Shown here piece after piece: positions 8,833 through 28,024 of a DNA stretch of 64,000 nucleotides; position 1 is the stretch's first letter, and each line of letters starts with the position of its first letter. This stretch comes from Minisyncoccia bacterium (GTDB lineage Bacteria; Patescibacteriota; Minisyncoccia; Phycocordibacterales; UBA9973), in the NCBI GenBank assembly GCA_049287045.1, contig JBAQFC010000009.1, forward strand, positions 946 to 64,945, in the 5' to 3' direction. The translations under genes were made by a program, and so were the position numbers. The notes under the pieces were generated by a model. It saw only the letters and a program-made list of their open reading frames with translations, did no database searches and was not told where the DNA came from.

Positions 8833-8864
8833 AATTTATATGTTAGCATAGAAAAATTTTTTTT

Positions 8865-9836
8865 CTATTTTATCTCACAATTTACCTTAAGCTCTGCAAT
8901 GTCTGCCTCAGTCAAAGTTTGATTGTTACTTTGGTTCAATTTGTACATTATTGCTTTTGGATCATTTACATGTCCGAGACCCAATGCGTGTCCTAACTCG
9001 TGAGCGAGTACTCTCACTAGTTTTTCTCTATTACTAAATTCATAAATATCTATTTTTTTATTTACACCATCACTTTGATACACACCTTCTTCGAAACTCT
9101 CTCCTAGAGTGCCATTGATTGAATTATATTCCTCCACAGAAAGATTGAGTGTATTTACTAGGCGATTTAAAACAACAACAAGAGCGTTAATCTCATCAAC
9201 AATTTCATTAATATGAGTTTGTAAATTATTTAATTGTATTACTTCAGCATCTAGTATAGATTTATCTGTTTGCAGGGTATTATATTCTTTTTTTGGTGCA
9301 CCTCCTTGTTCATTCCAATATTTTACCTGTTGTTCATAAACTTTCTGTTTTTCATTAAAAATAATTACACGTTTTTCATAACTATTTTTAGCTGTAGCGA
9401 GCTGTGTTTTTAGGTCTGTAAATTTAATTTTAAGTGAATCATAAGATGCTTTGTTGTTCTCAACAACAATACCCACACTTGCGAGTTTACTTGTTGCTTC
9501 TTGTCGGTAATCGTAAACAAGATTTATTTTTAAATCTCCAGTATCGGATACATAAGTAAACAATTCCTTTCCAAAAGGTTTTTCCCATATGTTTTCCGCT
9601 TCAGATAAAGCACTTAAAAAATATTTTTCAGAAATACCAAACTTAGTATCGAAGGAATCAATCTTGTAGGTAATAGGTTTAGAACAAGGAGTACTTAATA
9701 AGCTAATATTAGTATTTATTTGACTAAAAATATTATCAAGGGGCGTTTCGATTTTAGTCCTTATGCTGTCTCCATATTGATACAAAATCATACTGATAAT
9801 TGCAATAGGAATAAAAATTTTTAAAAATTTTTTCAT
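8865..9836 (-). CDS. Matrixin-like zinc metalloprotease (metzincin), membrane anchored with coiled-coil region
   Basis: HELGHALGLGHVNDPKAIMY (HExxHxxGxxH + Met-turn); N-terminal TM. Confidence 0.7.
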   Translation of the reverse strand: MKKFLKIFIPIAIISMILYQYGDSIRTKIETPLDNIFSQINTNISLLSTPCSKPITYKIDSFDTKFGISEKYFLSALSEAENIWEKPFGKELFTYVSDTGDLKINLVYDYRQEATSKLASVGIVVENNKASYDSLKIKFTDLKTQLATAKNSYEKRVIIFNEKQKVYEQQVKYWNEQGGAPKKEYNTLQTDKSILDAEVIQLNNLQTHINEIVDEINALVVVLNRLVNTLNLSVEEYNSINGTLGESFEEGVYQSDGVNKKIDIYEFSNREKLVRVLAHELGHALGLGHVNDPKAIMYKLNQSNNQTLTEADIAELKVNCEIK

Positions 9837-9842
9837 AATTAT

Positions 9843-12026
9843 CTAATTAGCATTACGTACTAAAAAGTATTCGTTATATGGTTGATCATCAGTTACTTCA
9901 ATTTTTTTATTAGAATTTAATAACTGATTAATATTAATTTTGCCACTTATAATTCTTTTAATGAAACTTAAAATATTAGGATCGTTGTAATCATTCCATT
10001 CCATTAAATCGTCTTGTGCAGATAATGGCATGTTTTTTACAATTTGTTCTGGATTTGGAATATTAATAGGTTCATTTGAAGCAAAAAAGTGATATCCCCA
10101 CTGTCTAACTGATTGATAGACTTCAACATAAGGAAAAACGTCAACTAGTGATCTTGCTACTGCTTGTAGGGCTTTGTCATTTTCATTTCCTCCTGGGTAC
10201 CATTGGGCCAGAATACCATTTTTAGATAAATGTGTTTGAGCGATTTCATAAAATTCTTTTGAATACAATAAACTTGATCCAGCCGCTTCTACTGGTGGTG
10301 GTGGATCAATAGCAATCAAATCATACTTTTCTGAAGTACGTTCTAGAAATCTACGCCCATCGTCTATAATTATTTGGTTGTTTGATTTAGCTAAAACCTG
10401 ATTCGCATCAGAAAAAAAATATGAAAAGAATTCCTTAACACTTGGTGTCAGTTCAACTGCTGTTGTGTTAAAGCCCCAACTTGCTGCAGAACGGAAAGTT
10501 GTACCCATACCGAAACATATTACTAATGCTTTTTTTGGATTTTGAGGTAAACTGGCTAAGGGTAAATGCGCCATTATTTTAGTAATAGGTGTTAATGTTG
10601 TCATACCAACACCATTAACCATTAAGTACTTAGATCTCATATCAGTTTGATCTAGAGTTGCAGCTAAAACCGTAGCATTATAATCGTTTTTAATAATTTT
10701 ATTAGGTGCTATCATATACTCCTCAAATGTTGTGCTAAATTTAACAGTGAGTAATAATAAAACAAACACCATAATTAATATTGGTTTACGAAGGTATGAT
10801 TGTAGAGTACTTATTTCACTTTTACGAATTAAAAACCAAATTAAAGGTAAACTAAAAAATATAATTGATAATTTTGAACCAATTAACGGCAGTAATATAT
10901 ATGAAGCCACAATTGGACCAATAATACAACCTAGTAAATTAATTGCATATGCCACTCCAGCAGTATTTGGATTTCCTTGTGATAATTTGTCAATTTGTTT
11001 CGGAGTTAAATAACCCAAAATATATGAAATTAAAAATACACACAAAATTACTCCAATAACTCCCCAACCTATGCGTGGATCTACAAACCAAATTTGTCCA
11101 ATAGAAACTATACACAATAGTTGTAATAAAATTTTAGTTGATAAAACTTTCCCTTTTTGAATATTATTTCGATAATGTAATAGCCCAACACAAGTTCCGA
11201 GTAAATATAAAAACAATATGAATGCAAATGCATAAACTGAAGTTTCTAAAATAGGTGTAAATAATCGATTCCATACTACTTCAAAACCAACAGATGAAAA
11301 TCCAGTAATAAATAATAAACCTAAAATAAACTTATCTTTTATGTTTATTTCCTTTAAAATAAAAGATTTAAATTCTTCTTTCTTTTCTTGTCGAAGAGGA
11401 TTTAATTTTAAATTTTTAGCAATTTTAATACTGATTAGTGCAATTAAAAAATTTAAAAATGAAGCGAATAATAATGTTTTTTTAAAACCTAATAATTCAA
11501 TTAATACTCCGGCAGTTAAAAATGTACCAACCATAGCACCAAATGTATTAGCTAAATATAAAAAACTAAAAATATTTTTATCCCAAGTGAAATGCTTATT
11601 TAAGAACTCCATTATTAATGGAATTGTAGTACCCATTAAAAAACACCAAGGTAGCATAGTTAAAGACAGAACTAGTGCTGATAAACCTAAGTATGCCCCC
11701 GAATTTGTTTGACCGAAAGTAAGAAGCCATAAATGTCCCATTAAAAAAAGTTTTGGTATAATTAATGCTCCTATTCCTATTCCTATTTCTGCAATACTGT
11801 AAAAATACAAAGATTCTATCTTATATTTTTTAGCTAACTTTATTAAATATTTACCAGAGATCCATGATCCTAGCACTAGTCCTAACATAAATACAGATAC
11901 AACTATTGAGATCACTTGAGCATTTATACCAAAATTTGCATAAGCTAATCTTAACCAAACAGTTTGATATAATAATGCACAAAATCCTGAGATAAAAAAT
12001 AAAAAGAAAAAAAGTTTTTTGATCAT
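9843..12026 (-). CDS. Fused polytopic membrane domain / spermidine synthase-like aminopropyltransferase
   Basis: ~470 aa of TM helices followed by LIAIDPPPPVEAAGSSLLYSKEFYE and GxG methyltransferase-like fold motifs of spermidine synthase. Confidence 0.7.
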   Translation of the reverse strand: MIKKLFFFLFFISGFCALLYQTVWLRLAYANFGINAQVISIVVSVFMLGLVLGSWISGKYLIKLAKKYKIESLYFYSIAEIGIGIGALIIPKLFLMGHLWLLTFGQTNSGAYLGLSALVLSLTMLPWCFLMGTTIPLIMEFLNKHFTWDKNIFSFLYLANTFGAMVGTFLTAGVLIELLGFKKTLLFASFLNFLIALISIKIAKNLKLNPLRQEKKEEFKSFILKEINIKDKFILGLLFITGFSSVGFEVVWNRLFTPILETSVYAFAFILFLYLLGTCVGLLHYRNNIQKGKVLSTKILLQLLCIVSIGQIWFVDPRIGWGVIGVILCVFLISYILGYLTPKQIDKLSQGNPNTAGVAYAINLLGCIIGPIVASYILLPLIGSKLSIIFFSLPLIWFLIRKSEISTLQSYLRKPILIMVFVLLLLTVKFSTTFEEYMIAPNKIIKNDYNATVLAATLDQTDMRSKYLMVNGVGMTTLTPITKIMAHLPLASLPQNPKKALVICFGMGTTFRSAASWGFNTTAVELTPSVKEFFSYFFSDANQVLAKSNNQIIIDDGRRFLERTSEKYDLIAIDPPPPVEAAGSSLLYSKEFYEIAQTHLSKNGILAQWYPGGNENDKALQAVARSLVDVFPYVEVYQSVRQWGYHFFASNEPINIPNPEQIVKNMPLSAQDDLMEWNDYNDPNILSFIKRIISGKININQLLNSNKKIEVTDDQPYNEYFLVRNAN

Positions 12027-12063
12027 ATTTGAAGTATTTTATTTAAAATAATAATATGTAAGT

Positions 12064-13758
12064 TTAATAAGTTTGAATAAGTTGTAAAAATTCTGGTGGG
12101 AGTTGAAATCCTCTTTTGTAAAGTTCTCCTGCATAAAATGCAGCATCTTTGTAATTCTTTTGGTCATAGTAATTTGCAGCCAAAGCTTTCAAGGCATCAA
12201 TATGGTTAGGATTAATTTCCAGTGTTTCTTTCCATTTTATTTCAGCTTCTTCAATTTTTTCTTGTTTCCAATACAATAATCCTAAATTAAAATACGCATT
12301 ATCATAATTTGGATTAATTTCTATTTCTTTTTTATATTCAATTTCAGCTTCTGTAAATTTATTTAAATTAGCGTAAGTAAGACCTAGATTGTTGTGGGTC
12401 ATTGGTTCATTAGGGTTAAGTTCTAGTGTTTTTTTGAATTGAATTTCTGCCTCCAACATATTCCCATCCAAAAAATTCATTGCGCCTAAATTATTACTAC
12501 TAAAAGCATAACTTGGTGATGTTTCTGTCGCATTTTTCCAAAACGCTAGTCTATTAACAAAATTTCTACTGTGCACCATTGTAATTACACTAAATATAAT
12601 TATTATGCTACTAATGATTATTAGTATACTTTTCTTTTTCAAGTCAATTTTTTTAATGAAATCAGTTTCAAGCAGGATTATAAAAATCCCAATTATAGGT
12701 AAATACAATCTGTGTTCACTAAAATTAGCAACAGAACTAGGATCTGGGCGGATAAATGAAGGCAACAAAAAAAACATAAACCACATTAATCCAAACAAGA
12801 TATAGTTCCAGCGTTTACCCTTGGTAAGGAATAATATTATAGTTAATAAAATTATTGAAACAATGCCATAAACAAATGTCGTGTCTTTCATTATGGGTAA
12901 TACGCTTAAGTTAAATGGAAAAAATATTTTACCTAGGAGTTGAACTAATGCAGGAAGACTAGAGAAAACTGATTTAATCATATTGATTAATGTTGCAGGC
13001 ATAGAACCTTCAAGGGCAAAATATCTAAGTAAAACCCAGATTCCAACTGCACCAGAAGATCCAATTAATAAATAAAATTTATTATATGTCTTATTTTCTT
13101 TATTCATAAAGAATAAATACCAAAATATTATTGGTAAAATGAATATTGCTGATTCTTTTGTAAAGAGAGCTAAACTAAAAAATAATAAAGACCAAAGTAA
13201 ATTACTTACTTTTTTTTCTTTAATTTCTTTAATAAGAAAAATAAAACTTGAAAGGATAAAAACTGCTAATAAAGAGTCGTTTCTTCCTGGAATCCAAGCG
13301 ACAGCTTGAGTTAAAACAGGATGAACTAAAAATATTATAGAAAAAAGTAATGCAAGTTCTTTGCGATAATCTAGTTTTTTTAGGAAACTAAACAGTAAAC
13401 ATGTTGCCAAAATATGTAGCCAAATATTGGTAAAATGATAAATAAAAGGAGAAATTCCACCAATTTGGTAATCAAATAGAAATGATAGAGTTAGAATTGG
13501 ACGATAATAAAAAGCGAGTATTTTTGTTGAGTTAAATACATCAATTTGAAAAAAATGCACAATATTTGAAAAACTACTGAGAAGATTCGTATTACCTAAA
13601 ATTAATGCGTTATCATCTAAATAAGAAAAATCAAAAAAAATCGCCTGAAAATAAACAAATAATCCCAGCGAAATAATAATTCCAAATGGAATCCAATTTA
13701 TTGAAAATATTTTATCTATAAAACTAACTGAATAATTTTTTAATGATTTGTTTTTCAT
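12064..13758 (-). CDS. TMTC/PMT-like GT-C membrane glycosyltransferase with C-terminal TPR repeats
   Basis: N-terminal ~400 aa multi-TM (DUF1736/PMT-like), C-terminal 4-5 TPR repeats ([41 protein letters not shown]...). Confidence 0.55.
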
Positions 13759-14483
13759 TTTTTAATACCAAAAATTCTTTTTAAAAAAAACTTGATTGCA
13801 ATAAAAAGAGTTGAAAATCCATATTTTAAACTCCTAATAAAATTTATCGAAGAGGCTTCTTTGAAATATCTAACTGGAACAGGAATTTCACCAATACGAT
13901 ACCCTTTTTCTATTATCTGGAATAAAACCTGTGTATCAAAAACAAAGTCATTTGAATTCTTCGTAAAATCAATATTTTCCAATACCTCTCTTTTATAAGC
14001 TCTCATACCTGTGTGCCATTCGGATAAATTATATCCACTCAAGACATTCTCCCAAAAAGTTAGGAAACGGTTCGCAAAATATTTATACATTGGCATCCCT
14101 CCTGCCAAAGCTTCTTTTCTGGATCGGATTCTAGAGCCCAACATCACATCACAATATCCTTCTTCAATGAAACCTACTAAATATTTTATTACTTTAGGGT
14201 CATATTGATAATCAGGATGAATCATTACGATAATGTCTGCGCCTTTCGCTAAGGCCATTTTGTAGCAAGTTTTTTGATTACCTCCATAACCTTTATTTTT
14301 ATCGTGACAGAATACAGTGAGGTTAAGTTTTTTTGCTAAAAAAACTGTCTCATCACTACTATTATCATCAACTAGGATTATTTCACTGACAATATCCCTC
14401 GGTATTTCTGATACCGTTTTTTCTAAAGTCTTCTCTGCATTATATGCAGGCATTATAACGATAATATTTGATTTTTTAGTCAT
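13755..14483 (-). CDS. GT2 family glycosyltransferase (polyprenol-phosphate sugar synthase, DPM1/ArnC-like)
   Basis: [18 protein letters not shown]...[10 protein letters not shown]; 242 aa; 4-nt overlap with downstream GT-C gene. Confidence 0.8.
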
Positions 14484-14547
14484 ATTGTCTTGTTTGAAAA
14501 CTTCTAAAGTTTAACACAATAGAAAAATGGCGGCAATAATATGATTT

Positions 14548-15579
14548 TTATAAAATTCTCGCAAAAAATTGGAATAAATGTGCCCAAAAATAGTCCAACA
14601 TATTTGGTTTGTAATTTTTTTGGTCAAAAATAATTGACTCCCCTTTCCACTTGTCTGTTATTTCAACAAGTTTACTTACCGTCGCAAGGTCACTAAAAAA
14701 AACTCCCAGCTCTGTATTTAGTTCAAATGATAAAAAATCTAAATTTTGTGATCCTATTATTCCTTCCTTCTCATCAATAATCATAACTTTTGCATGGTTC
14801 ATTTTTGGTTCGAGATAAAAATTTACTCCAAGTTTCGCCAATTTATTCATGTAAAAATAATTTACACGATCAATCAAAGCATGGTCAGTTGTTTTTGGAA
14901 CTAGAATATCTACTTTAACTCCACGTAAAACCGCTTGGTGAAGAAGTACAATAAACCAACGTTTAGGCATGAAATATGGAGTTGCGAGTATTACGTGTTT
15001 TTTTGTTTGATTTAAATATTCTTTGTAAACTCTTTTTAGGAAAAATTTATTTCTATGTGGAAAATTTTCAACGAGCCAGATCTGTGTTTTATGTAAAAAG
15101 TTCTTTTTGCTTTCAGAAAGAATTAGTGGATCTTTACCTCCGCATTCTACATATGATTTAGCAAAAGATTTAACTATTTTTTTAATAAATGCACCTTTAA
15201 CTCTTACCACTAAATCATCCCACAACCTTGCACTTTGATGAAAATTGACACCCCCTATAAAACCAATAGAATTATCTATGACAAGTATTTTCCTGTGTGC
15301 ACGATGAAATAAATAACTAATAAATAAAACTTCTACTCCGGCTTCTTTCATACTACTAAGTGCATTTTTACTGAGTTTGGAGCTACCAAAATAGTCTAGT
15401 ATTACACGGACTCTAAGTCCTTGTTTTGCTTTTTCTTTTAAAAGTTCAGAAAAATTAAACTTTTCCATGTCATCTTGAAAAATGTACATTTCTAGATATA
15501 CAGATTCCTTGGCTAGTTTTATTGCTTCAAACATGGCCTGCCATGTCGTTTCTGAGTTAGTAAAAAATTTATACTGCAT
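14548..15579 (-). CDS. Phospholipase D family protein / cardiolipin synthase-like (two HKD motifs)
   Basis: HRKILVIDNSIGFIGGVN and HAKVMIIDEKEGIIGSQNLD. Confidence 0.8.
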   Translation of the reverse strand: MQYKFFTNSETTWQAMFEAIKLAKESVYLEMYIFQDDMEKFNFSELLKEKAKQGLRVRVILDYFGSSKLSKNALSSMKEAGVEVLFISYLFHRAHRKILVIDNSIGFIGGVNFHQSARLWDDLVVRVKGAFIKKIVKSFAKSYVECGGKDPLILSESKKNFLHKTQIWLVENFPHRNKFFLKRVYKEYLNQTKKHVILATPYFMPKRWFIVLLHQAVLRGVKVDILVPKTTDHALIDRVNYFYMNKLAKLGVNFYLEPKMNHAKVMIIDEKEGIIGSQNLDFLSFELNTELGVFFSDLATVSKLVEITDKWKGESIIFDQKNYKPNMLDYFWAHLFQFFARIL

Positions 15580-16236: not shown

Positions 16237-16308
16237 AATCTTAGGTGTTTTAAGTTGTTGAGAACTATTTCTACTTTAGTAGAGTAACAATTAATTCATA
16301 TTTTGTCA

Positions 16309-16342
16309 ATAAAAAAGCCTCTCAGTTGAGAGGCTTTTTTAT
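16309..16342 (-). terminator. Rho-independent terminator after Cys-rich repeat protein gene
   Basis: aaaaaagcctctcagttgagaggctttttt. Confidence 0.7.
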
Positions 16343-16355
16343 TGACTAGCTTATT

Positions 16356-18506
16356 TTAATCGTTACCTTTGCATTGTTCACATTGAGATCTGACACCTTC
16401 TGGTACATAGGAACACGACGGTACTGCAGCAAAGTTACTACAGTTGATACTAGGCACTGCGCCAGATGGTGGCGTATATATACCAGTAGGAGGGGTAATT
16501 CCAGCTCCTGTTGGGATATCATCTCCTGATGGACCAAAACCACCTGTAGGTATCTTGAAATCAGATCCATCTGGAATATCACTTTGTTTAAATCCTTCCG
16601 GAATATTTTCTGGTTTAAAACTCTCTGGCATTTTCGGTTTAAAGTTGGCCATACAAGCAGTAACAAGTGAAGTAACTACTTCCTGACCAGCTGCACCACT
16701 TTGGATTTTAGCCATCATCGCATCATTAATTTTATTTTTCACACAATCACGAATTTCTTGAGGAGCTTGGCTTAGTTTATCTTCCATCATTTTTAGTGCT
16801 GAACTTTTTAGCACACCAGCACAATCCTGCATAGCCTTTCCTACTTCTTGTCCAGCTCCTGCATTTTCACCTTTTTCGTATGCTGCTACTTTTTCTTTTC
16901 CTAGTTTTTCTTCCAAACATGCTCGTGCTTCAGGAGGCATTTGGCCAATACCAGTTTGGAATTTTTTCATACCTTCTATTTTCATGTTTTCAAAACATTT
17001 TTTGAAAACATCACCTTGTTCTGGTGTTGGAGCAGTACCTTCTTTTATTTTTTCTAATCCCCCATCACCCAATTCTTTATTTAAGCAAGAGATGGTCTCT
17101 GGTGATGCCTGTTCTAATGCACCTTTCATCTGTTCTACTAGCTTACTCATATTTTTTTCAAAACAATTTTTTATTTTCACGCCCATTTCTGGTCCAGGCA
17201 TAAATTTACCACTTTCAATTTCGCCTATTATATTTTCACCAAAGTTATCCTTTAAACATTGGATTACTTCTTTTGGTGATTGATCAAGTCCTGATCGTAA
17301 TCTCCCCATTCCGTCTTCAATCTCTTTTAGTTTATCAGCCGGGATAATATCGTGTTCTTTCGCAAACTGGAAACAAGCTTCTTGGTTGGCTGAATCATTA
17401 CAAAATGATGCACAAGAATCCTTAGAACGACATCCACCTGGTCCTTTACCACCAACCTTTTTAGCTAAAACTGCATCTTCTGGACTAATAAGTCCTGCTT
17501 TTTCAGCAAAGGTTAAACATTCAGTTATATTGTTTTCACTGTCACAATATTTCTGACAATCGGCTTTTGTTTTACATCCGCCTGGTGATTGACCAGAATT
17601 TATAAGAGGCAATACTTTTCGTGCAAGAGCTGCATCTTCTGCGTTGACGAATCCTGCTTTCTCAGCAAAACCTAAGCACTCTTCAACATTAGCTGGAACA
17701 GCACAATAACTTGAACAGGAAACTTTATCCTTACACCCTCCTGGCATAGTAGCACCAGATTTCAGTGCACTGGCTACTTGTTTAGCCTCTTTCAAAGCTC
17801 CCGCCGGAATAAGATCATGCTTCTCTGCGAAAGTTAAACATGAATCAATGTTCTTTAAGTCACTACAGAAAGCTTCGCAGGAATTTTTGTCTTTACAAGC
17901 TCCTGGACCTTCTCCTTTTAATACATCTGCAAACTTTTTGGATTGTTCAGCTTGGTCTTTTGTAATCAGACCACTTTTTTCTCCATAAGAAATACAAGCT
18001 GAGATATTTTCTTGTTTAGCACAAAAGGATTGACAATCTGATTCACTTTTACAACTACCAAGTTCAGCTATTGGAAATTTTGTATCTGGTTTTGCTGTTT
18101 TTCTTAAATGACCTACAAGGCCAAAAGAACTATCTGTAACTACACCATCAGTAGAAAAAGTATAAACTCTACCCCAAAGATTTAGTTTATTATCGTTGGG
18201 GCTGATTGTTCTGTAGTTATAAGTTCCGATTGTGCCTGAGCCTTCATTAAAACCGGTCACTGACCAGTTTGTGGTAGAAGGGTTGTATTTAACAGTATAT
18301 GTCTCACCAGCCTTGAGTGTACCCATTGGATCCTTAATACTCGTCCAACCGGAGTCATCAAAGGTCGCAGTATCAAAGGCTACATAGAAAACTTTACCGG
18401 AATTTATATATGCAGACCAATCATTGGCAGTCGATTGCGCACTTACTTGAGACACACCTAAAAGACAAAGTAAACTCAGCACCAGTGTAAAAATATTTTT
18501 TTTCAT
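16356..18506 (-). CDS. Large secreted Cys-rich tandem-repeat protein (signal peptide, beta-rich N-domain, 5x ~50-aa C-x5-C-x3-C-x9-C repeats, 4x two-Cys repeats, Pro/Gly-rich Cys-containing tail)
   Basis: Start taken at MKKNIFTLVLSLLCLLGVSQVSAQS (18506) rather than ORF-track 18587; repeats read directly in translation. Confidence 0.6.
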   Translation of the reverse strand: MKKNIFTLVLSLLCLLGVSQVSAQSTANDWSAYINSGKVFYVAFDTATFDDSGWTSIKDPMGTLKAGETYTVKYNPSTTNWSVTGFNEGSGTIGTYNYRTISPNDNKLNLWGRVYTFSTDGVVTDSSFGLVGHLRKTAKPDTKFPIAELGSCKSESDCQSFCAKQENISACISYGEKSGLITKDQAEQSKKFADVLKGEGPGACKDKNSCEAFCSDLKNIDSCLTFAEKHDLIPAGALKEAKQVASALKSGATMPGGCKDKVSCSSYCAVPANVEECLGFAEKAGFVNAEDAALARKVLPLINSGQSPGGCKTKADCQKYCDSENNITECLTFAEKAGLISPEDAVLAKKVGGKGPGGCRSKDSCASFCNDSANQEACFQFAKEHDIIPADKLKEIEDGMGRLRSGLDQSPKEVIQCLKDNFGENIIGEIESGKFMPGPEMGVKIKNCFEKNMSKLVEQMKGALEQASPETISCLNKELGDGGLEKIKEGTAPTPEQGDVFKKCFENMKIEGMKKFQTGIGQMPPEARACLEEKLGKEKVAAYEKGENAGAGQEVGKAMQDCAGVLKSSALKMMEDKLSQAPQEIRDCVKNKINDAMMAKIQSGAAGQEVVTSLVTACMANFKPKMPESFKPENIPEGFKQSDIPDGSDFKIPTGGFGPSGDDIPTGAGITPPTGIYTPPSGAVPSINCSNFAAVPSCSYVPEGVRSQCEQCKGND
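16736..18059 (-). repeat. In-frame tandem coding repeats (~150 nt units) within Cys-rich protein gene
   Basis: repeat units GGCK.K..C..FC........C..FAEK.GLI...A...K visible 5 times, then a related 2-Cys unit 4 times. Confidence 0.6.
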
Positions 18507-18516
18507 TTTGTTTAAA

Positions 18517-18771
18517 TTATTTAGCAAAAGGATTTGTATATCCTGATTTATAAGGATTAGTTTCGACCGAATTAAATACATTAACATTTGGAATCTTTTC
18601 TAATGGCTGTTCTTCTCCAACAGCATCCGAGACAACTCCTCCAAAAGAGGCAGCTTGTGTTTCTGTTTTTATTTCTTCAGCTGTTTTTGTTTCTTGTTTT
18701 TTACCAACAAAAAACCAAGCTGCTAAAATAATTAAAATTACTACAATAATTGCTATTATTATTTTCTTCAT
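18517..18771 (-). CDS. Small membrane-anchored protein immediately upstream of Cys-rich repeat protein
   Basis: 84 aa; N-terminal TM IIIAIIVVILIILAAWFFV; stop 11 nt before downstream start. Confidence 0.4.
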   Translation of the reverse strand: MKKIIIAIIVVILIILAAWFFVGKKQETKTAEEIKTETQAASFGGVVSDAVGEEQPLEKIPNVNVFNSVETNPYKSGYTNPFAK

Positions 18772-18863
18772 GTAATTCTATTTATAAACTTATAATAAAT
18801 TCGACGACATGTTTTTATTATAACAAATTAGTAAGACGCAAATCTCTATAGATTGTGGATATT

Positions 18864-18900
18864 AAAAATAAAAAACCCAGCCTTATTTTTAAGGCTGGGT
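18864..18900 (-). terminator. Rho-independent terminator
   Basis: cccagccttatttttaaggctggg flanked by A/T runs. Confidence 0.65.
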
Positions 18901-18984
18901 CAGTATGTTCATTAGAATCAAAACAATTATGTTAAGCGGTTAACCAAACGTTTGTTTTCTAAACTAATGTTTTTAAAAACATAC

Positions 18985-19413
18985 CTATTCTAGAGGTTCG
19001 TTATCAATCCAATCAATTTCTTTTAAGTTGTTGATAGGAAAAATTATTTGATATCTCTTAGCAAGAGTTATTACTTCTCGCTTCAAGATAGTCTCATAAT
19101 CAAAGTCATAATCAGCGAGTTTTTCAAACTCTTTTTTTTCTGAGAAGAAAATTACCGCTGATTCTGCTTCTTCATCAAAACTAAAAGTAATTCCTCTCGG
19201 ATCATTTATTATCAATTCCCTCTTTTCCTGAATATTTTTTTTGAAACCAATTCGTCCCATAAATCCTTCAGCCTTAACTTTCTTTTTTTCTGAAAGATAA
19301 CCGATCTTAACAGATATAATGTTTTTTTTGACTATTTCTGTTAAAGAAATATTTTTGTTTTCTTTATTTTTGAAAACTGGAATTTCTGGGAACACTGCAT
19401 TATTTCTTTTCAT
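18985..19413 (-). CDS. Hypothetical protein
   Basis: ORF 142 aa, no motifs recognised. Confidence 0.4.
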   Translation of the reverse strand: MKRNNAVFPEIPVFKNKENKNISLTEIVKKNIISVKIGYLSEKKKVKAEGFMGRIGFKKNIQEKRELIINDPRGITFSFDEEAESAVIFFSEKKEFEKLADYDFDYETILKREVITLAKRYQIIFPINNLKEIDWIDNEPLE

Positions 19414-19633: not shown

Positions 19634-20263
19634 TTATTTATTCTTTTTTGTTGCTACAGTTTTCTTGACTACTACTTTTTTTGCAGGAGTTTTTGCTACA
19701 ACAACCTTTTTTGCAACTGTCTTGACAGCTAATATTTTTTTTACTTCTATTTTTGGTGCTGTCATTTTAGGTGCCATGATTACAGCTGGAGTAGTTTTAG
19801 CAATAGGGGCTGATTCTTTAGTTTGAGAAAGTCTTTCCATTACGGTTATAAGACGATCAAGTTTCATACCTATTTCTCTTAATTGTTTCTTTGTATCATC
19901 TTGTGCGAACGCAGGGGTTGATGTAGGTTTTGAAAAAGAACTAGTTGAACTAGGTCTGTCACTACTGTATTCTCTTCTTGGTTCACGACTTTCAAAATCT
20001 CTACGTGGAGCTCTTTCTCCTCCATCTTCTCTTTTACTACTAAAACAATCGGAACAGTAAACAGGCTTATCACCTGTTGGGCGAAAAGGAACTTCACAGT
20101 TCTTGCCACATTCACTACAGACAGCTTTGTGCATAACAACTTCTCTATCACGAAAACCTCCACCTCCAAAACTCTTTTTCTGAAAGTTTGGTCTTCCTCC
20201 GCTACTATTACCACCTCTAAAACCTCCACCTCCTCTTCTGTCTCCTCCTTGAAAATTTCCCAT
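19634..20263 (-). CDS. Nucleic-acid-binding-like protein: RGG/Gly-Arg-rich N-terminus, CxxC-x18-CxxC zinc ribbon, Lys/Ala-rich histone H1-like tail
   Basis: GGDRRGGGGFRGG..., CSECGKNCEVPFRPTGDKPVYCSDC, KKVVVAKTPAKKVVVKKTVATKKNK. Confidence 0.5.
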   Translation of the reverse strand: MGNFQGGDRRGGGGFRGGNSSGGRPNFQKKSFGGGGFRDREVVMHKAVCSECGKNCEVPFRPTGDKPVYCSDCFSSKREDGGERAPRRDFESREPRREYSSDRPSSTSSFSKPTSTPAFAQDDTKKQLREIGMKLDRLITVMERLSQTKESAPIAKTTPAVIMAPKMTAPKIEVKKILAVKTVAKKVVVAKTPAKKVVVKKTVATKKNK

Positions 20264-20434: not shown

Positions 20435-20797
20435 TTATTTTATTAATTCAGCTTCTTTTTTTCTAATATCAACATACTTAAACCAAGTATCAATAGAGTA
20501 ATTCATTTGACGTCTGAATTCTCTTTGGTAATATTGTTCTCTTGATTCTTTGTCCAGTGTAAATGAAGGTATTTCTCGTGCTCTCTCTTCTCTTTCCAAG
20601 TCATTAATCCTTTGGTTATACAGACGTACATAAAAATTTTTATCTGTCTCCATTTCCAATTCAGCAGTTGCTATGTCCTTAATTATAGCTTCGTCTTGAG
20701 GTGTTTTCATCTCCTCTTTTTGTTTAGCCCAATTTTGGTTAATAATTTCTTGGAACTTTTTAAGTTCTTTTTCTAGGTACTCCGCGTTTGTTTCCAT
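20435..20797 (-). CDS. Hypothetical coiled-coil protein
   Basis: ORF 120 aa, charged/heptad-like. Confidence 0.35.
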   Translation of the reverse strand: METNAEYLEKELKKFQEIINQNWAKQKEEMKTPQDEAIIKDIATAELEMETDKNFYVRLYNQRINDLEREERAREIPSFTLDKESREQYYQREFRRQMNYSIDTWFKYVDIRKKEAELIK

Positions 20798-20802
20798 TTC
20801 TC

Positions 20803-21165
20803 TTAGTTTTTTAATTGTGAATTTTTATTTAATTTTTCTTGTTCAATTCTTCTATTAAATTCATCTCTAATCAATATAGATTTTTCATAATCTTCTTCAT
20901 TGATTGAAATTTCTAATAGAGATTGTAATTCTTTGTTTTCTATTTTTTTATAATCAATTTCTGATTTAAATTTAAAATAGTCAATAAAATTTTCAGAATT
21001 GGCACCAATTTTTATCAAGGAAGTAGATTTATTTCTCTGCTTTTCCTTTTTAATTTCCTTTTGTATTTCTTTTTTGTTTTCTTTAGGTCCTCTCGAATAA
21101 AACAAAACGAGCAAAAGAAGTATTAGTACTTCTAGACCAGTTTCAATAAGATAAGACATATTCAT
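20803..21165 (-). CDS. Hypothetical membrane-anchored coiled-coil protein
   Basis: ORF 120 aa; N-terminal TM. Confidence 0.35.
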   Translation of the reverse strand: MNMSYLIETGLEVLILLLLVLFYSRGPKENKKEIQKEIKKEKQRNKSTSLIKIGANSENFIDYFKFKSEIDYKKIENKELQSLLEISINEEDYEKSILIRDEFNRRIEQEKLNKNSQLKN

Positions 21166-21244
21166 ATGACAAAGATTTATAGATTATTACTATTTTCATT
21201 AAAATACCATAGATTAGTTAAAAAAGGAAGAGGGTGTAATTAAA

Positions 21245-21283
21245 ATAGAAAAATAAAATGCAGCCCATTTTTAGGGCTGCATT
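21245..21283 (-). terminator. Rho-independent terminator
   Basis: tgcagcccatttttagggctgca. Confidence 0.65.
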
Positions 21284-21301
21284 GGATGTAAAATATTTTT
21301 T

Positions 21302-21724
21302 TTATTTTAATGGTTCGAACCCATATCTTGGGATACTGACTTTTTCACTATTTTCCTTATCGTCAAAACTATCTGACCACTCTTTTATTTTAAATCCGGC
21401 ATCTTTTAGTTCTTTAATATAATCAAAAGGTAGAAATTCTGTTTCAGTATTATTTTTCGGAAAAATAAGAGCAATCTTATCATTTTTTCTTTCTGTTTCA
21501 CTTTGAATATACTTAAAAAGTTTTACTGCGAACTCAAGTTTGTATTTTTTCCTTAAATTAATAAGGTTAATACCGTACGTAAGAGCCTGATTTAGTAGCA
21601 TTCGGTGGTGCTTGCTAATTTTTTTAATATAGATAGGAGTGTTAGTTTTACCAACACCGTCTCTCAATTCCTTCATCCTTATGTGGAGATTCAGAATCTT
21701 TTTTCTGTGTTTTTTGCTACTCAT
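21302..21724 (-). CDS. Hypothetical protein
   Basis: ORF 140 aa, basic N-terminus. Confidence 0.4.
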   Translation of the reverse strand: MSSKKHRKKILNLHIRMKELRDGVGKTNTPIYIKKISKHHRMLLNQALTYGINLINLRKKYKLEFAVKLFKYIQSETERKNDKIALIFPKNNTETEFLPFDYIKELKDAGFKIKEWSDSFDDKENSEKVSIPRYGFEPLK

Positions 21725-21903
21725 GTTCTGTTTTTTTGAGGTTTATAAAAATCAATTATTAGTTCTTCCAAAAATCTGTAAAGACCCTTGGATCAACCAA
21801 CAATTAATTAAAATAAAGCAGAATATCAAAGAACCACCATCCTTGGGATGATAGAATATTTACACTTGACTGTCAATTCATATTTATTTGTAATTTTAAA
21901 AAG

Positions 21904-22107
21904 CTACAAACATTTGCAATTACTTTCTGCTTCTTTGCATTTTTTGCACTTTACTTGCACCATAGATTTTTCATTACATGCTTGAAAATGTAAAGGATTG
22001 TATTGCATTGTGGTGTATCCACACTTAGGGCATTTAAATCCATCACCTTCACCATGACAAGTACTGCAATTTTTGGGAGACAAATGTTTTGTTATGTTGT
22101 AAGCCAT
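21904..22107 (-). CDS. Small Cys-rich protein (11 Cys / 67 aa; rubredoxin/zinc-ribbon-like CxxC...CPxCG)
   Basis: CSTCHGEGDGFKCPKCG ... CKKCKEAESNCKC; 9-nt spacing from upstream peroxiredoxin stop. Confidence 0.45.
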   Translation of the reverse strand: MAYNITKHLSPKNCSTCHGEGDGFKCPKCGYTTMQYNPLHFQACNEKSMVQVKCKKCKEAESNCKCL

Positions 22108-22116
22108 ATATATAGT

Positions 22117-22680
22117 TTAAATTTTTCCAACCAAATCAATCCCTGGTGTTAATACCTCTTTTCCTGGCTCCCAGTTTGCGGGACAGACGTTTTCACTATG
22201 TTCTCTGACAAATTTAGCTGCTTGTAGTTTTCTTAACATTTCCTTTGCACTTCTGCCAATATTATTGGCATGTATTTCGATTGTTTTTAAAACTCCATCA
22301 GGATCAATAATAAATGTACCACGTAAAGATAAACCCTCAGCTTCAATATAAGTTCCAAACATCATTGATACACTTCCAGTCGGATCAGCTAACATTGGAT
22401 ATTGTATTTTACTTATGGTCGGTGAGCTATCATGCCACGCTTTATGAGCAAAGGCGGTATCAGTACTAATGCTCATTATCTCCCCTCCTAAATTTTTAAC
22501 TTCTTCATAATACGTAGATGCATCTTCTAATTCTGTCGGACAAACAAAAGTAAAATCAGCTGGGTAAAAAATCAAGATTACCCATTTACCCTTGTATTCA
22601 GAAAGTTTTATTTTCTTTATTTCATTATTTTGGTATGCATCTACTTCAAAATCAGGCACAATTGAATTTATATTTATCAT
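22117..22680 (-). CDS. 2-Cys peroxiredoxin (AhpC/Tsa family)
   Basis: FTFVCPTELE peroxidatic Cys motif, 187 aa. Confidence 0.85.
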   Translation of the reverse strand: MININSIVPDFEVDAYQNNEIKKIKLSEYKGKWVILIFYPADFTFVCPTELEDASTYYEEVKNLGGEIMSISTDTAFAHKAWHDSSPTISKIQYPMLADPTGSVSMMFGTYIEAEGLSLRGTFIIDPDGVLKTIEIHANNIGRSAKEMLRKLQAAKFVREHSENVCPANWEPGKEVLTPGIDLVGKI

Positions 22681-22696
22681 AATATGATTATATCAA

Positions 22697-23062
22697 TTAA
22701 AAACCTGAAGCACGAGTTACGCTATCTAGGTTGATTTGTTTAGAATCATCTTTGTCTTTTATTAATTCTTTTAGAAGAACATAAATATCCTGTAGCTCTG
22801 AATTAACTATTCGTGCTTCCAAAAATATTCCATCCTCATGAGGAGTCCTTTCTTTTGAAATAACTTTTTCTATTTTTAGAACTATTACTTCACTAAAGAA
22901 TGGTTTATAAATATTCAGCATATCCTCAATACTATATTTAGCAGTGTAAAGTTCATCTGATTTTAATAACTCCAAATTTCCCAATGTGAGCATTTTTCTT
23001 ACCTTCACAAAATGTGACATTAAATTTTCTACCAATTCCTTGTTTGTCATATAAGTACACAT
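22697..23062 (-). CDS. Hypothetical protein
   Basis: ORF 121 aa. Confidence 0.4.
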   Translation of the reverse strand: MCTYMTNKELVENLMSHFVKVRKMLTLGNLELLKSDELYTAKYSIEDMLNIYKPFFSEVIVLKIEKVISKERTPHEDGIFLEARIVNSELQDIYVLLKELIKDKDDSKQINLDSVTRASGF

Positions 23063-23210
23063 CTTAACATTTTAATTATGGAAATAGTAAATTTATATAT
23101 TTGACATACCTAGAACTATAAGCTATTGTATACATGAATCGTTTAACTTTGTTCCGTTAAATAAATTCCGAAAATTAACTAATTATTTAACCATTTAAAA
23201 TTAAAAAACT

Positions 23211-23486
23211 ATGGGAAATCTTATTTACCACTCATTGCCGTTTATTTTGGCTATCATTATCACTTTGTACACTATGTATCTATTTTTTACAAGAGGTATA
23301 ATTGTAAACGTAGTTGGGCTATTAATGTTAGCTTTCAATTTAACAATTTGGGGAGCCTGGTTTTTACCAAATGTCCCAAATAGTCCATTAACAATATGTA
23401 CAGTTCTTGTATTTACTGCATCAACAATTTTAATTTTTGTTATTGCTAAATATTTTATTGATGGCACGAAAAAAATTCAACAATAG
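23211..23486 (+). CDS. Small membrane protein (3 TM)
   Basis: ORF 91 aa hydrophobic; followed by terminator. Confidence 0.35.
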   Translation: MGNLIYHSLPFILAIIITLYTMYLFFTRGIIVNVVGLLMLAFNLTIWGAWFLPNVPNSPLTICTVLVFTASTILIFVIAKYFIDGTKKIQQ

Positions 23487-23498
23487 TATTTAATCATC

Positions 23499-23531
23499 AA
23501 AAAAAACACTTCAATCGAAGTGTTTTTTTTA
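23499..23531. terminator. Bidirectional terminator
   Basis: aaaaaaaacacttcaatcgaagtgtttttttt. Confidence 0.7.
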
Positions 23532-23564
23532 ATTTTAAATTAAAATCATACAACAATAAAAGAA

Positions 23565-24191
23565 TCAATTAAACGTTAAGGTGTGACGAATTTGATCAAA
23601 CTGATCTAAAAGTGCTTTTTCGTTAAATTGTTTTATTGTCCCCTCTGGATAGTTTTCAAGAACTCCATAATGAATAAAATAACGTACTGCTATACATGAG
23701 TTTGTTCCTGGAATTGCGTATATTTTTTCCTCGTATCTATTTCCTGCTGCTGCGCCGGTAGATGAAGCATACGAATAAGTCATATTTCCATCAATCAAAC
23801 TACTAGCTTTAGCTTGATCTAGAAAAAGATCCGCTGTGCAATTTTTACTCTGTTTGATATTTTCAATACTTATATATGAATCATTGCTTAGGTTTGTTCC
23901 ATCTGATATTGATTTTGGAATAGCAAATTTTATACCTTCTATGTCTTTGCCAGGTCCTAGCATTTGGTATTTATATGTATTATCAATAATAAAATTTTCT
24001 GGATATGTTACAGACATATGCAAAGCAATATCTGTATAAGTTTTGTATTGCGTCATTTCTAGTTTGATTGGCAAATAATATATATTTATTTTTCGCTCCC
24101 CTATCACAAAACCAACAAAAAAAGTTGAAACAAATAAAACAACCGCAAGCAGTTTAGAATACCAAGTTACTTTGTAAAATTCTATTTTCAT
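23565..24191 (-). CDS. Hypothetical membrane-anchored extracytoplasmic protein
   Basis: ORF 208 aa, N-terminal TM. Confidence 0.4.
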   Translation of the reverse strand: MKIEFYKVTWYSKLLAVVLFVSTFFVGFVIGERKINIYYLPIKLEMTQYKTYTDIALHMSVTYPENFIIDNTYKYQMLGPGKDIEGIKFAIPKSISDGTNLSNDSYISIENIKQSKNCTADLFLDQAKASSLIDGNMTYSYASSTGAAAGNRYEEKIYAIPGTNSCIAVRYFIHYGVLENYPEGTIKQFNEKALLDQFDQIRHTLTFN

Positions 24192-24285
24192 AAATTAATT
24201 ATACTACTTCTAAGTTTATACGTTCAATTTTAATTTAAAATAAAAAAACATCCCTTACAAAGAGATGCTTTTACTGACATTTTTA

Positions 24286-24873
24286 TCATATTTTTTTATT
24301 AGCTTGTGCCAAAAATAATTTATAGCTACAGTTTACAATCTTGTCATCCATGTATCCAGCATACCCATGTTGAAAGAACGTGATTCCTGTTGGATTAATC
24401 CAATACTGTGCAAAAAAATTTCTTGGATCGTTGTCGTCATTTTTATATACATCAACAAGAATAGATATTATCTTACTTTGATCATTTTTAAATGTATGAA
24501 AATGATGTATGTTATTCAGACTATCACGAAGAATATAATCGTGTTCTGTCCAAAAACGATATTCTCTTTCAGTAAAATCAGGAGTTCCATGTTTTTCAAC
24601 ATAGTTGGCTAGCCTGTTAAACTTTCTTTTACTCATTGCTAAGGTCGGTACAGATATTTCTTCTTTAGGATCTAAATAAAAATATTCATCCATAGATGTT
24701 GAAATATTTGTATTACTTGTTTGAGTAACTTGCGATTGTTTTACTTTATTAGAACAACTAACAAAGATAAAAATAAATAAAGTTAATACGAAAACTGAGA
24801 TTACATTTTTCATGATATATAGTTTTAATTGGGTTACCACAAACCCCTTATATTTAGGATCTTTGGTAACCAA
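24286..24873 (-). CDS. Putative lipoprotein (probable start at internal MKNVISVF..., lipobox FVSC)
   Basis: signal + L-x-x-C lipobox-like motif. Confidence 0.4.
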   Translation of the reverse strand: MVTKDPKYKGFVVTQLKLYIMKNVISVFVLTLFIFIFVSCSNKVKQSQVTQTSNTNISTSMDEYFYLDPKEEISVPTLAMSKRKFNRLANYVEKHGTPDFTEREYRFWTEHDYILRDSLNNIHHFHTFKNDQSKIISILVDVYKNDDNDPRNFFAQYWINPTGITFFQHGYAGYMDDKIVNCSYKLFLAQANKKI

Positions 24874-24945
24874 TCAAAACATTTTTAAGGAGCTAATTAA
24901 CTAACTTAAGTATAGCATAATTATATTAAAAAGTCAATAGATATA

Positions 24946-24963
24946 AACCTTATAAAATAAGGC
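24946..24963. repeat. Minimal R1-type hairpin CCTTAT-aaa-ATAAGG (followed by gcttata) upstream of bcp
   Basis: aaccttataaaataaggcttat; same stem arms as the long R1 elements. Confidence 0.4.
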
Positions 24964-25024
24964 TTATATAACTTATTAACTTTTTTCATATGGTACACAC
25001 ATATATAAGTGATATAGTTTATAT

Positions 25025-25474
25025 ATGCTCAAAGTAAAAACTCTAGCTCCAAATTTTAAACTTTTAGACCAAGATGGAAAGGAACATTCACTTGTTTACC
25101 ATCGTGGTTCTTATGTTCTTATTTATTTTTATCCCAAAGATGATACACCTGATTGTATAAAAGAAGCTTTCAGTATACGTGACTTATATAAGGATTTTAA
25201 AGCTAATGATATTAAAGTTTTTGGTATAAGTCCTGATTCAATAGAAAGTCATAAAAAATTTGCAGAAAAATATAATCTTCCATTCACTTTATTATCTGAC
25301 CCTGAAAAAAAAGTTATCCAAATGTATGAAGCAGATAGTATTATTTTCTGTAAACGAATTTCATATCTAATAGGCCCTGACGGAACGATAGAAAAAGTTT
25401 ATCCCAATGTAGACCCCGCTAAACATGGCATTGAAATACTTAACGACTTTTATGATTTACATTTTAAACGGTAA
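25025..25474 (+). CDS. bcp: Thiol peroxidase Bcp/PrxQ (peroxiredoxin)
   Basis: LIYFYPKDDTPDCIKEA matches Bcp FYPKDDTPGCT. Confidence 0.8.
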   Translation: MLKVKTLAPNFKLLDQDGKEHSLVYHRGSYVLIYFYPKDDTPDCIKEAFSIRDLYKDFKANDIKVFGISPDSIESHKKFAEKYNLPFTLLSDPEKKVIQMYEADSIIFCKRISYLIGPDGTIEKVYPNVDPAKHGIEILNDFYDLHFKR

Positions 25475-25507
25475 GAAAAAATATAAAATAGATGACAATG
25501 ATAGATT

Positions 25508-25975
25508 CTATTTATTTATCACTGTGACAATAGCCGATTCAAGTTTTGTTGGTTCATCAGTTCCGATTCGATAGATTTTTCCGTTCTTCATAATTAATTC
25601 AACCGCATCAAAACCTGAAACACTATATATCCACATTTTGGGCCACAGCCACAATTTTATTCCCCATCCATAATACCAATGATTCTTTACTGTTCTAACT
25701 GAAGCTATTTGATTAAGTGCGAACTTCCTGGTAAAAATTCCGTAACCAAATTTGATCCGGAGGTAGTTTTCATCAGTCGAAACCGTCAGCGTGGCAAACG
25801 ATGCAAGAATAAACACAATCAACACCATCACAGCAGTAACGAGAAAATTTGTGCCGGAGTCGACTGAAGGAGGTTCGGCCCTGGCCGTAAGATGAGCCCA
25901 TGTGAAAAACACCAGCACGGCTAGCGTAATAACCAGCATCAGATATCCAATTTGAGTGTGTTTATATGAAACCAT
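25508..25975 (-). CDS. Membrane protein with C-terminal bacterial PH-like domain (tentative)
   Basis: 2 TM then beta-rich ~90 aa region; weak resemblance to bPH_2. Confidence 0.35.
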   Translation of the reverse strand: MVSYKHTQIGYLMLVITLAVLVFFTWAHLTARAEPPSVDSGTNFLVTAVMVLIVFILASFATLTVSTDENYLRIKFGYGIFTRKFALNQIASVRTVKNHWYYGWGIKLWLWPKMWIYSVSGFDAVELIMKNGKIYRIGTDEPTKLESAIVTVINK

Positions 25976-26012
25976 AAATATATTATATCAAATAAAGTTA
26001 AAAATACGAGTT

Positions 26013-26067
26013 GACCTTATTGGACAATATTGGAGGCATTTTTAATGCAGAATGAGGTTTAAATATC
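26013..26067. repeat. R1 intergenic element copy A (gaccttattggac...ttggagg...tttttaat...gaggtttaaa)
   Basis: aligned by eye with copies at 26607, 27343, 28051. Confidence 0.55.
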
Positions 26068-26155
26068 TTATTTATATTTCTTTAACTTCAATAATATCTT
26101 GAGTGATAATCTTTGAAGAATATTAAGAATCAGAATGTTAAAATCTTTTTCATAA

Positions 26156-26560: not shown

Positions 26561-26606
26561 AATAAAATTATATCATAGTTGATATCCGATATTTGGATTT
26601 AGTGCT

Positions 26607-26649
26607 AACCTTATGGGACGCTGTCGAATCTATTTTAATAAATAAACAA
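26607..26649. repeat. R1 intergenic element copy B
   Basis: aaccttatgggacgctgtcgaatctattttaataaataa. Confidence 0.5.
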
Positions 26650-26680
26650 TAAAAAAGGGCTTCACGTTACATGAAGCCCT
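26650..26680 (-). terminator. Rho-independent terminator
   Basis: gggcttcacgttacatgaagccc + T-run on minus. Confidence 0.65.
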
Positions 26681-26689
26681 TAATAAACA

Positions 26690-27193: not shown

Positions 27194-27267
27194 ATTTTAT
27201 AGATTTAAATTGTTTAATTGATTGATTTACTTTATTCTCCATTTAGAAGCACAAGGTAAATCAATCA

Positions 27268-27437: not shown

Positions 27438-27448
27438 TATTTAACTCT

Positions 27449-28018: not shown

Positions 28019-28024
28019 GTAAAC

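Follow-up and report, generated by a model that had tools for sequence, protein, structure and literature searches.

A conserved gene pair encoding a secreted cysteine-repeat protein and a small membrane protein

We analysed a stretch of 64,000 nucleotides (G+C ~31%), referred to as the window, from the metagenome-assembled genome of a Minisyncoccia bacterium of the Patescibacteria (contig JBAQFC010000009.1, assembly GCA_049287045.1). Two adjacent genes on its minus strand encode a 716-residue secreted protein built of tandem cysteine-rich units and an 84-residue single-pass membrane protein with an NPF-containing C-terminal tail. In this study, we found a new domain family in the large protein and a new conserved gene pair, both undescribed in everything searched. 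In general kind it is a familiar arrangement, in which a membrane tether would hold a scaffold of Cys-stapled repeats outside the cytoplasm. The preliminary description of the window had reported both proteins, a gap of 11 nucleotides between them and terminators on either side. The large open reading frame (ORF) was confirmed, and its product is 100% identical to NCBI 'hypothetical protein WAV23_01960 [Minisyncoccia bacterium]'. The small gene lies just upstream as reported, but the measured distance to the ATG of the large gene is 10 nucleotides. A terminator-like hairpin was found on either side of the pair.

As shown in Table 1, the hairpin that closes the gene further upstream marks the 5' boundary of the two-gene unit. 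An extended -10 element, TGtTATAAT, is a possible candidate promoter of the pair. It was not listed in a consensus promoter scan because it has no well-spaced -35 element. A longer large ORF could begin at an ATG at 18587, but the start at 18506 is favoured because homologues start at an MKKNIF-type hydrophobic leader.

Table 1. Positions of the features of the gene pair in the window (residue numbers refer to the respective protein).
Feature	Residues	Position	Strand	Basis or remarks
Large gene, 716-residue secreted Cys-repeat protein		16356..18506 (stop codon included)	-	ORF and translation
Signal peptide	1-23	18438..18506	-	Sequence; predicted cleavage after VSA (…LLGVSQVSA, followed by QS)
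Accessory N-terminal beta domain	24-145	18072..18437	-	AlphaFold2 strands
Five Cys4 units	146-405	17292..18071	-	~48-54 residues each, predicted three-helix, C-x5-C-x3-C-x8-C
Four Cys2 helical units	406-625	16632..17291	-	Period ~57 residues
Pro/Gly-rich linker	626-686	16449..16631	-	Predicted disordered; pLDDT <50 over 629-632 and 653-684
C-terminal 4-Cys mini-domain	687-716	16359..16448	-	pLDDT >90
Small gene, 84-residue single-pass membrane protein (NPF-tail partner)		18517..18771	-	ORF
N-terminal transmembrane segment of small protein, IIIAIIVVILIILAAWFFV	4-22	18706..18762	-	Sequence
Conserved C-terminal tail of small protein, EKIPNVNVFNSVETNPYKSGYTNPFAK	58-84	18520..18600	-	Family alignments
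NPF-tail peptide of small protein, candidate array ligand, ETNPYKSGYTNPFAK				
Promoter-like extended -10, TGtTATAAT		18817..18825	-	Read from sequence; ~45 nucleotides 5' of small-gene ATG
Terminator-like hairpin closing the upstream gene (18985..19413)		18874..18901	-	12-bp stem, 6 GC pairs, then T-run
Symmetric bidirectional terminator-like hairpin		16305..16346		19-bp stem, directly after large-gene stop codon

The pairing of the two genes was then followed across relatives. At each of seven loci inspected by hand, a gene for a protein of 79-93 residues lies directly upstream of the large gene and every other neighbour differs; in three of them the large protein has no C-terminal Cys element. 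In a scan of one genome per species of the GTDB, 77 loci had sufficient upstream DNA. A partner was counted when it had an N-terminal transmembrane segment and at least two NP[FYLIW]-type motifs within its last 45 residues. Of these loci, 75 have such a gene directly before the large one; it ends anywhere from 32 nucleotides inside the large gene to 108 nucleotides before its start, and the flanking genes vary. These results indicate that the pairing, noted before at this one locus, is strongly conserved.

The partner is a small protein with a conserved C-terminal tail

The 84-residue protein matched no Pfam or NCBIfam family above cutoff. It belongs to a family of at least 626 members of ~75-140 residues, none with a Pfam domain, whose names are purely automatic ('FliL', from JGI, and 'FtsL'). 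The consensus runs M-(K/R)-transmembrane segment-variable linker-LGGxIY-x5-NPxE-x-(I/L)PxTNPF-x5-9-TNP(F/Y)-x3-Y-x-NPF-(0-2 residues)-COOH. N72, P73, N80 and P81 of the tail are invariant in the alignments. All 160 small proteins compared have an NPx motif within 3 residues of the C-terminus, and each carries 2-6 such motifs. The (I/L)PxTN string is followed by no transmembrane segment and is thus not an LPXTG-type signal. Assignment as FliL (NCBIfam NF004285) was rejected, as the match reached 23.1 bits against a cutoff of 179 bits and covered residues 2-40, the transmembrane region, only.

The net charge flanking the transmembrane segment in 155 small proteins is +1.9 on the N-terminal side and +1.0 on the C-terminal side, and from the sequences the protein is likely to lie with its N-terminus inside and its C-terminus outside. 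If instead the small protein were a dedicated export, folding or quality-control factor, the NPF tail could be cytoplasmic and the protein would not be an anchor. The tight coupling of the genes, at 10 nucleotides here and -32 to +108 nucleotides in the GTDB loci, would suit such a helper. So would the modest charge bias and a weak likeness of the N-terminus to FliL/YajC-type single-pass proteins, which some JGI names echo. However, Lys or Arg nearly always directly precedes the transmembrane segment, as is typical of N-in signal anchors, conservation is found at the extreme C-terminus and not in the membrane segment, and the FliL match is far under its cutoff. We therefore regard a helper role as unlikely.

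The large protein consists of an exported array of helical units

The N-terminus of the large protein (MKKNIFTLVLSLLCLLGVSQVSA, followed by QS) resembles a Sec signal peptide, in agreement with the earlier proposal of a secreted protein. A comparable hydrophobic leader is present at the N-terminus of all homologues, and residues 1-25 have a predicted local distance difference test score (pLDDT) below 50. The leader LSLLCLLGVSQVSAQ contains no lipobox; C14 lies outside any lipobox and is not conserved among homologues. A bacterial lipoprotein was ruled out by the missing L-[AS]-[GA]-C lipobox at the end of the signal peptide. A sortase (LPXTG) substrate was likewise ruled out, as the C-terminus, ...CSYVPEGVRSQCEQCKGND, has no LPXTG motif, hydrophobic segment or basic tail.

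A full-length AlphaFold2 model was built with a 120-sequence alignment. Its mean pLDDT was 83.6, rising above 90 across both repeat regions. The beta-rich domain of ~120 residues described after the signal peptide was recovered as predicted strands at residues 40-135. It is followed by the five Cys-rich units of ~50 residues, which begin at C152, C204, C258, C311 and C359. Their last spacing had been given as x9, but the sequence gives C-x5-C-x3-C-x8-C. The conserved FAEK-GLI segment was found as 'C..FAEK.G(L/F)I' in the units. The Cys4 motif occurs at just these five places in all six frames of the window, and its absence elsewhere argues that it is not due to chance. In the predicted unit, C1 lies in a loop before helix 1, a short helix 1 holds C2 and C3 one turn apart, helix 2 holds C4, and helix 3 is longer. 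A segment of three Cys4 units modelled alone was all-helical with no strand (pLDDT 92.3; predicted template modelling score, pTM, 0.73). This pTM suggests that, in the model, the units pack as one rigid body and not as beads on a string.

The second array contains four two-Cys units as described before, but they are not shorter. The Cys pairs (C417/448, C474/504, C530/562 and C588/618) are separated by 30-32 residues, not ~35, and the period is 56-58 residues. A common origin of the Cys4 and Cys2 units was rejected, with an hhalign probability of 0.1. The Pro/Gly-rich tail does end in a Cys cluster; it holds one CxxC, not two, within C689-x8-C698-x10-C709-x2-C712 (consensus CxxFxxxPSCxYVP...CxxC). 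The mature protein has 32 Cys residues and an isoelectric point (pI) of 5.2.

The repeat unit maps to no described domain

That the repeat is not a described domain was tested against Pfam, NCBIfam, the PDB and Foldseek, and the unit mapped to no known family in any of them. The large protein itself had no match in Pfam or NCBIfam. When 145 single units of the family were searched against Pfam, the best match was AtDEF-like (PF25052) at 18.8 bits, below the gathering threshold of 25 bits. Sub-threshold matches to this family were obtained in 21 of the 145 units, and others scattered to nodulin, scorpion-toxin and Euplotes-pheromone families. Three homologues reached 25.4-27.9 bits for AtDEF-like as whole proteins by summing over repeats, with 0-1 stretches passing. 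AtDEF-like and scorpion-toxin proteins, the only sequence family to surface, share with the units a C...CxxxC spacing on a helix. The units, however, are predicted all-alpha without a beta hairpin, so that the matches reflect this spacing only. A CS-alpha-beta defensin was rejected, as the units are under threshold, all-alpha and without the CxC partner motif, and the likeness is one of Cys pattern by coincidence, not homology.

The same matches bear on whether the large protein could be a polyprotein precursor whose cleavage at PGG junctions would yield defensin-like antimicrobial peptides aimed at the host. The sub-threshold defensin, toxin and pheromone matches, together with the three homologues barely over the AtDEF-like cutoff, are what speaks for it. 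Every single-unit score is nevertheless under the gathering threshold, and all-alpha units are not of the CS-alpha/beta type. Conservation runs position by position, the units are predicted to be packed as one body (pTM 0.73), and no recognisable cleavage sites are present. A polyprotein of this kind is highly improbable.

Whether the query was the protein, the unit profile or the family profile, sequence searches of the PDB returned nothing below E=0.1. Foldseek searches of the PDB gave a best E=0.19 with a template modelling score (TM) of 0.15 for the full-length model, and a best E=2.6 with TM <=0.26 for the three-unit model. Against BFVD, the full-length model gave a best E=0.056 with TM 0.10. 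TPR/PPR-like solenoids were the best, though weak, Foldseek matches. A TPR/PPR solenoid was rejected, with no Pfam match and the best PPR matches at E>5 and TM <=0.26. A saposin-like (SapB) domain was also rejected: each unit has 4 Cys in ~50 residues, Pfam gave no match, and no saposin was among the Foldseek matches in the PDB. Prosaposin is comparable in being a secreted chain of consecutive small Cys-stapled helical modules, but saposin modules have ~80 residues, 4-5 helices and 6 Cys. Neither protein family was described in the full-text literature searched, which comprised open-access papers only.

PG_binding_1 and CW_7 were rejected as well, with no Pfam match at E<=1 for the protein or E<=0.1 per unit and none among the Foldseek matches. 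These two families are relevant to another explanation, in which the array binds wall polymer or peptidoglycan through ~50-residue three-helix units. Unit size and three-helix secondary structure are alike, and secreted proteins of Minisyncoccaceae with peptidoglycan-binding domains have been reported to be highly expressed (PMC10936435). However, the negative Pfam and Foldseek results reduce the likeness to one of size, and we consider a wall-binding array quite unlikely.

The cysteines of the units are nearly invariant

Of 1,869 Cys4-unit instances across the family, 1,836 (98%) retain all four Cys. Natural units with one lost Cys pair were sought in order to infer the disulfide topology, and no informative case was found among the 1,869 instances. 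The Cys residues plausibly form disulfides that staple each unit. We infer this because Cys totals are even, the Cys2 units are unable to form metal sites alone, and export is by Sec and not Tat. In addition, an MdbA-like thiol-disulfide oxidoreductase, frequently beside VKOR, is reported to be enriched in CPR (candidate phyla radiation) genomes (bioRxiv 10.1101/335083). The 35 window ORFs scanned include no Dsb, MdbA or VKOR gene. The term 'disulfide-rich' in the preliminary description is thus plausible from the even Cys counts, the Cys2 units and the reported oxidoreductase.

Near-invariance of four Cys per unit would be expected if the sites bound Zn, Fe or Fe-S and the protein served as an extracytoplasmic metal store or redox protein, and the partial-loss variants that would expose disulfide pairs were not found. 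Against this, the signal is of Sec type and not Tat, and the Cys2 units and even totals suit disulfides. The Cys spacing lies in a helical context with no CxxC knuckle in the unit, and CPR genomes possess the MdbA/VKOR oxidising machinery reported in the same study. Metal binding is therefore very unlikely in our estimation.

The array is widespread and stable within Parcubacteria

The full large protein has more than 460 homologues, all 'hypothetical', and the named ones all come from Parcubacteria-type candidate phyla. With the Cys4-unit profile, 1,849 clusters (50% identity) were matched at E<=0.001, and 1,033 of them went as far as 1e-30; named members are few and again from Parcubacteria. 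The unit number across the family is 4-13. Proteins matched by the profile are as long as 1,555 residues and show as many as 13 matched stretches, for which counting motifs gives 8-10 in the two proteins concerned. In the giant members P0127 (1555 residues, 140 Cys) and P0131 (1431 residues, 110 Cys), a second Cys-rich low-complexity repeat, for example TTTTCPADQYWNGTSCV reiterated, follows the Cys4 array, and the C-terminus of P0131 is hydrophobic.

The GTDB scan confirmed 151 loci, of which 80 were retained. These come from at least 16 named lineages, namely Nomura-, Lloyd-, Azam-, Sung-, Niyogi-, Wildermuth-, Harrison-, Wolfe-, Terry-, Lipton-, Yanofsky-, Colwell-, Kaiser-, Giovannoni-, Specht- and Jorgensenbacteria. 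About 20 member loci lie on third-party 'binchicken' or co-assembly metagenome-assembled genomes labelled 'uncultured Candidatus Saccharibacteria', and one (L067) is labelled 'uncultured Gammaproteobacteria'. These labels are probably generic or wrong and do not reflect true occurrence outside Parcubacteria. We propose to define the family by a signal peptide, at least four tandem C-x5-C-x3-C-x8-C three-helix units and an upstream single-pass membrane protein ending in repeated NP[FY] motifs; the pair in the window has all of these.

Among the 120 closest homologues, 94 have exactly five Cys4 units (range 4-8), and Cys totals are almost always even. The C-terminal 4-Cys element occurs in 64-68 of them and in some distant members. 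The large gene contains no tandem repeat at the DNA level, and the sole length difference from the nearest relative (80% identity) is a 24-residue indel in the Pro/Gly linker. Length polymorphism of the array, which had been suggested as a check, was thus not observed. It follows that the array is ancient, with position-specific conservation, and is not a fast-varying adhesin repeat.

Accessory domains vary between members

More than half of the 120 closest homologues have their first unit at about residue 40-55 and hence no N-terminal domain. The beta domain of the window protein is common to its closest relatives only; other members have a different N-terminal domain or none. It has no Pfam match. 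The same domain also exists as free-standing secreted proteins of 115-153 residues (P0392-P0401; locus L089, 4001-4453). A search with the isolated domain returned at least 10 stand-alone proteins and was incomplete, as the full-length carriers (P0001-P0013) were not returned. From the sequences, the beta domain would be an unannotated mobile module. Its motifs are FDDSGW…DPMGTLKAGETY…LWGRVY, and the neighbours of the stand-alone genes are all hypothetical and without Pfam matches.

In four distant members a LamG/ConA-like lectin domain was found (PF13385, E 1e-20 to 1e-27), which precedes the array in one protein and follows it in the other three. This recalls the LamG/ConA-like surface proteins of Patescibacteria, and one family member is named 'LamG domain-containing protein [Candidatus Giovannonibacteria]'. 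The window protein differs in having no LamG, its own beta domain being a different, unannotated module. Ligand or host binding is hinted at by the LamG additions only and thus concerns the accessories, not the core. The preliminary description had proposed an extracellular adhesin or binding module. Export is borne out, whereas the adhesin part derives only from the beta domain and the LamG fusions of relatives.

A tethered surface scaffold is a possible function of the pair

Parcubacteria (Paceibacteria) belong to the most abundant of the uncultivated bacteria, and roughly half their genes are unannotated. The construction of their envelope and their attachment to hosts are largely obscure. 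We read the two genes as one transcription unit and as a cell-envelope module specific to Parcubacteria (Paceibacteria/Minisyncoccia, Patescibacteria). We take it for an envelope module kept throughout the lineage with position-specific conservation, and not for a one-off adhesin. The function that we tentatively put forward, with less than even confidence, is that of a helical rod, stapled by disulfides and kept on the cell surface through the NPF-tail anchor, that shows optional binding domains. The large protein would be exported via Sec and fold outside the cytoplasm into an elongated all-alpha body, in which five three-helix Cys4 units and then four Cys2 units may each be stapled by disulfides. 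The co-translated 84-residue protein would span the membrane, N-terminus inwards and tail outwards. Its C-terminal NPF tail may dock on the helical array and tether an otherwise releasable protein at the surface. The conserved core could then act as a scaffold or stalk that shapes the envelope or carries lineage-variable binding domains, such as the 120-residue N-terminal beta domain here or LamG in some relatives, many having none. In favour of this reading are the non-random repeats, the confident models with packed units, the near-invariant Cys, the near-obligate partner gene with its NPx terminus, the accessory nature of the terminal domains and the terminators of the pair itself.

Known systems offer partial parallels to this arrangement. 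In TPR clamps for the EEVD-COOH tails of Hsp70/Hsp90, tandem helical units stack into one body, as is predicted here, and the ligand, like the candidate one here, is a partner with a short motif at its extreme C-terminus. The units described here are, in contrast to the 34-35-residue helix pairs of TPR, three-helix, 48-57 residues long, extracytoplasmic and equipped with 2-4 invariant Cys; neither TPR nor PPR was matched in Pfam, TM values did not exceed 0.26, and peptide binding is putative. The two-component surface layer of Sulfolobus (SlaB/SlaA), in which the smaller membrane protein anchors the secreted one, is likewise made of a large exported protein and a membrane-anchored partner, adjacent and conserved as a pair. 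It has no sequence or fold relation to the present pair, whose anchor has ~84 residues with an N-terminal transmembrane segment and a short motif tail.

Several observations weigh against the tethered rod. The function is drawn from architecture, and the fold searches returned no structural homologue. Roughly two in three members of the family carry no accessory binding domain, so that the core must act on its own. The N-terminal flank of the transmembrane segment is the more positive one in only 59% of small proteins, and the two flanks are equal in 19%. Arrays with more Cys4 units do tend to come with more NPx motifs, which is a hint in favour of docking, but the correlation is weak (Spearman 0.30, p=0.006, uncorrected for shared ancestry) and fails for a strict NP[FY] count. 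One-to-one matching of motifs and units was rejected on account of this weak correlation. A more specific version of the tethered rod is rather doubtful. It would have a membrane-anchored peptide with 2-6 NPx motifs, mostly NPF or NPY and the last of them at the free C-terminus, threading onto a disulfide-stapled helical repeat of new fold, about one motif per unit interface, as a platform for interchangeable host-binding domains of episymbionts.

The breadth and stability of the family also fit an envelope structural protein that binds no host, whether as a wall component, within an S-layer-associated lattice or as a spacer that sets envelope geometry. The family is kept across at least 16 named Parcubacteria lineages, five units are stable in 94 of 120 close homologues, and most members have no accessory binding domain. 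The protein is acidic (pI 5.2) and belongs to a strong, isolated transcription unit. However, classical S-layer proteins are typically Cys-poor, and Pfam detected neither an SLH nor any other wall-binding domain in the large protein. A purely structural role of this kind seems to us somewhat unlikely.

Whichever of these roles applies, a 'hypothetical protein' becomes a defined module with a Cys4 helical domain, an NPF-tail small-protein family and a near-obligate pairing. Although CPR genomes abound in unannotated families, the present one is unusually large, cleanly defined and accompanied by a diagnostic partner. If the docking of the tail on the array is true, the pair would give a handle on surface architecture, and the NPF peptide could serve as a marker and an affinity tag for the few cultivated members. 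If the threading version is true, it would represent a previously unknown, lineage-specific surface attachment in ultra-small Parcubacteria. If docking is wrong, the Cys4 family remains well suited to become an entry of its own in Pfam/InterPro.

Genomic surroundings

Directly downstream of the pair, a run of minus-strand genes (7561-15579) encodes a HI0933-like flavoprotein, a matrixin-like metalloprotease (PF00413), a 727-residue protein with a spermidine-synthase-like domain, a 564-residue PMT_2 glycosyltransferase with C-terminal TPRs, a GT2 overlapping the latter by 4 nucleotides and a PLD-type (cardiolipin-synthase-like) enzyme. These genes are mostly envelope-related, and the neighbourhood is not kept beside homologues elsewhere. 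On the other side, a gene at 19634-20263 (minus strand), with its own flanking terminator-like hairpins, encodes a 209-residue protein. In this protein, an RGG-like N-terminal region rich in Gly and Arg is accompanied by a CxxC-x17-CxxC treble-clef zinc finger (PF23477 / TIGR04272, E ~5e-18) and by a C-terminal tail that is rich in Lys, Ala and Val and weakly resembles histone H1-like Hc2.

The region 20435-28688 holds about ten ORFs of 120-208 residues, mostly on the minus strand, and none of those scanned had a Pfam match. Two AhpC/TSA peroxiredoxins lie within it, at 22117-22680 (minus strand) and 25025-25474 (plus strand). Further along, an MsrB (SelR) gene is found at 49736-50320 and a gene for a CheW-like domain protein (PF01584, E=6e-26) at 50880-51395 (minus strand), the latter in a reduced CPR genome. 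Beside one homologue elsewhere, on the 341-kb Patescibacteria-like contig k141_82438 (ENA ERZ27249449), a gene two positions downstream of the Cys-repeat gene (6306-7599 of locus L006, minus strand) has an 830-residue product with precomputed Pfam matches to the major vault protein domains Vault_3 and MVP_shoulder. Judged from these matches, the product would be an unexpected relative of the eukaryote-type vault protein.

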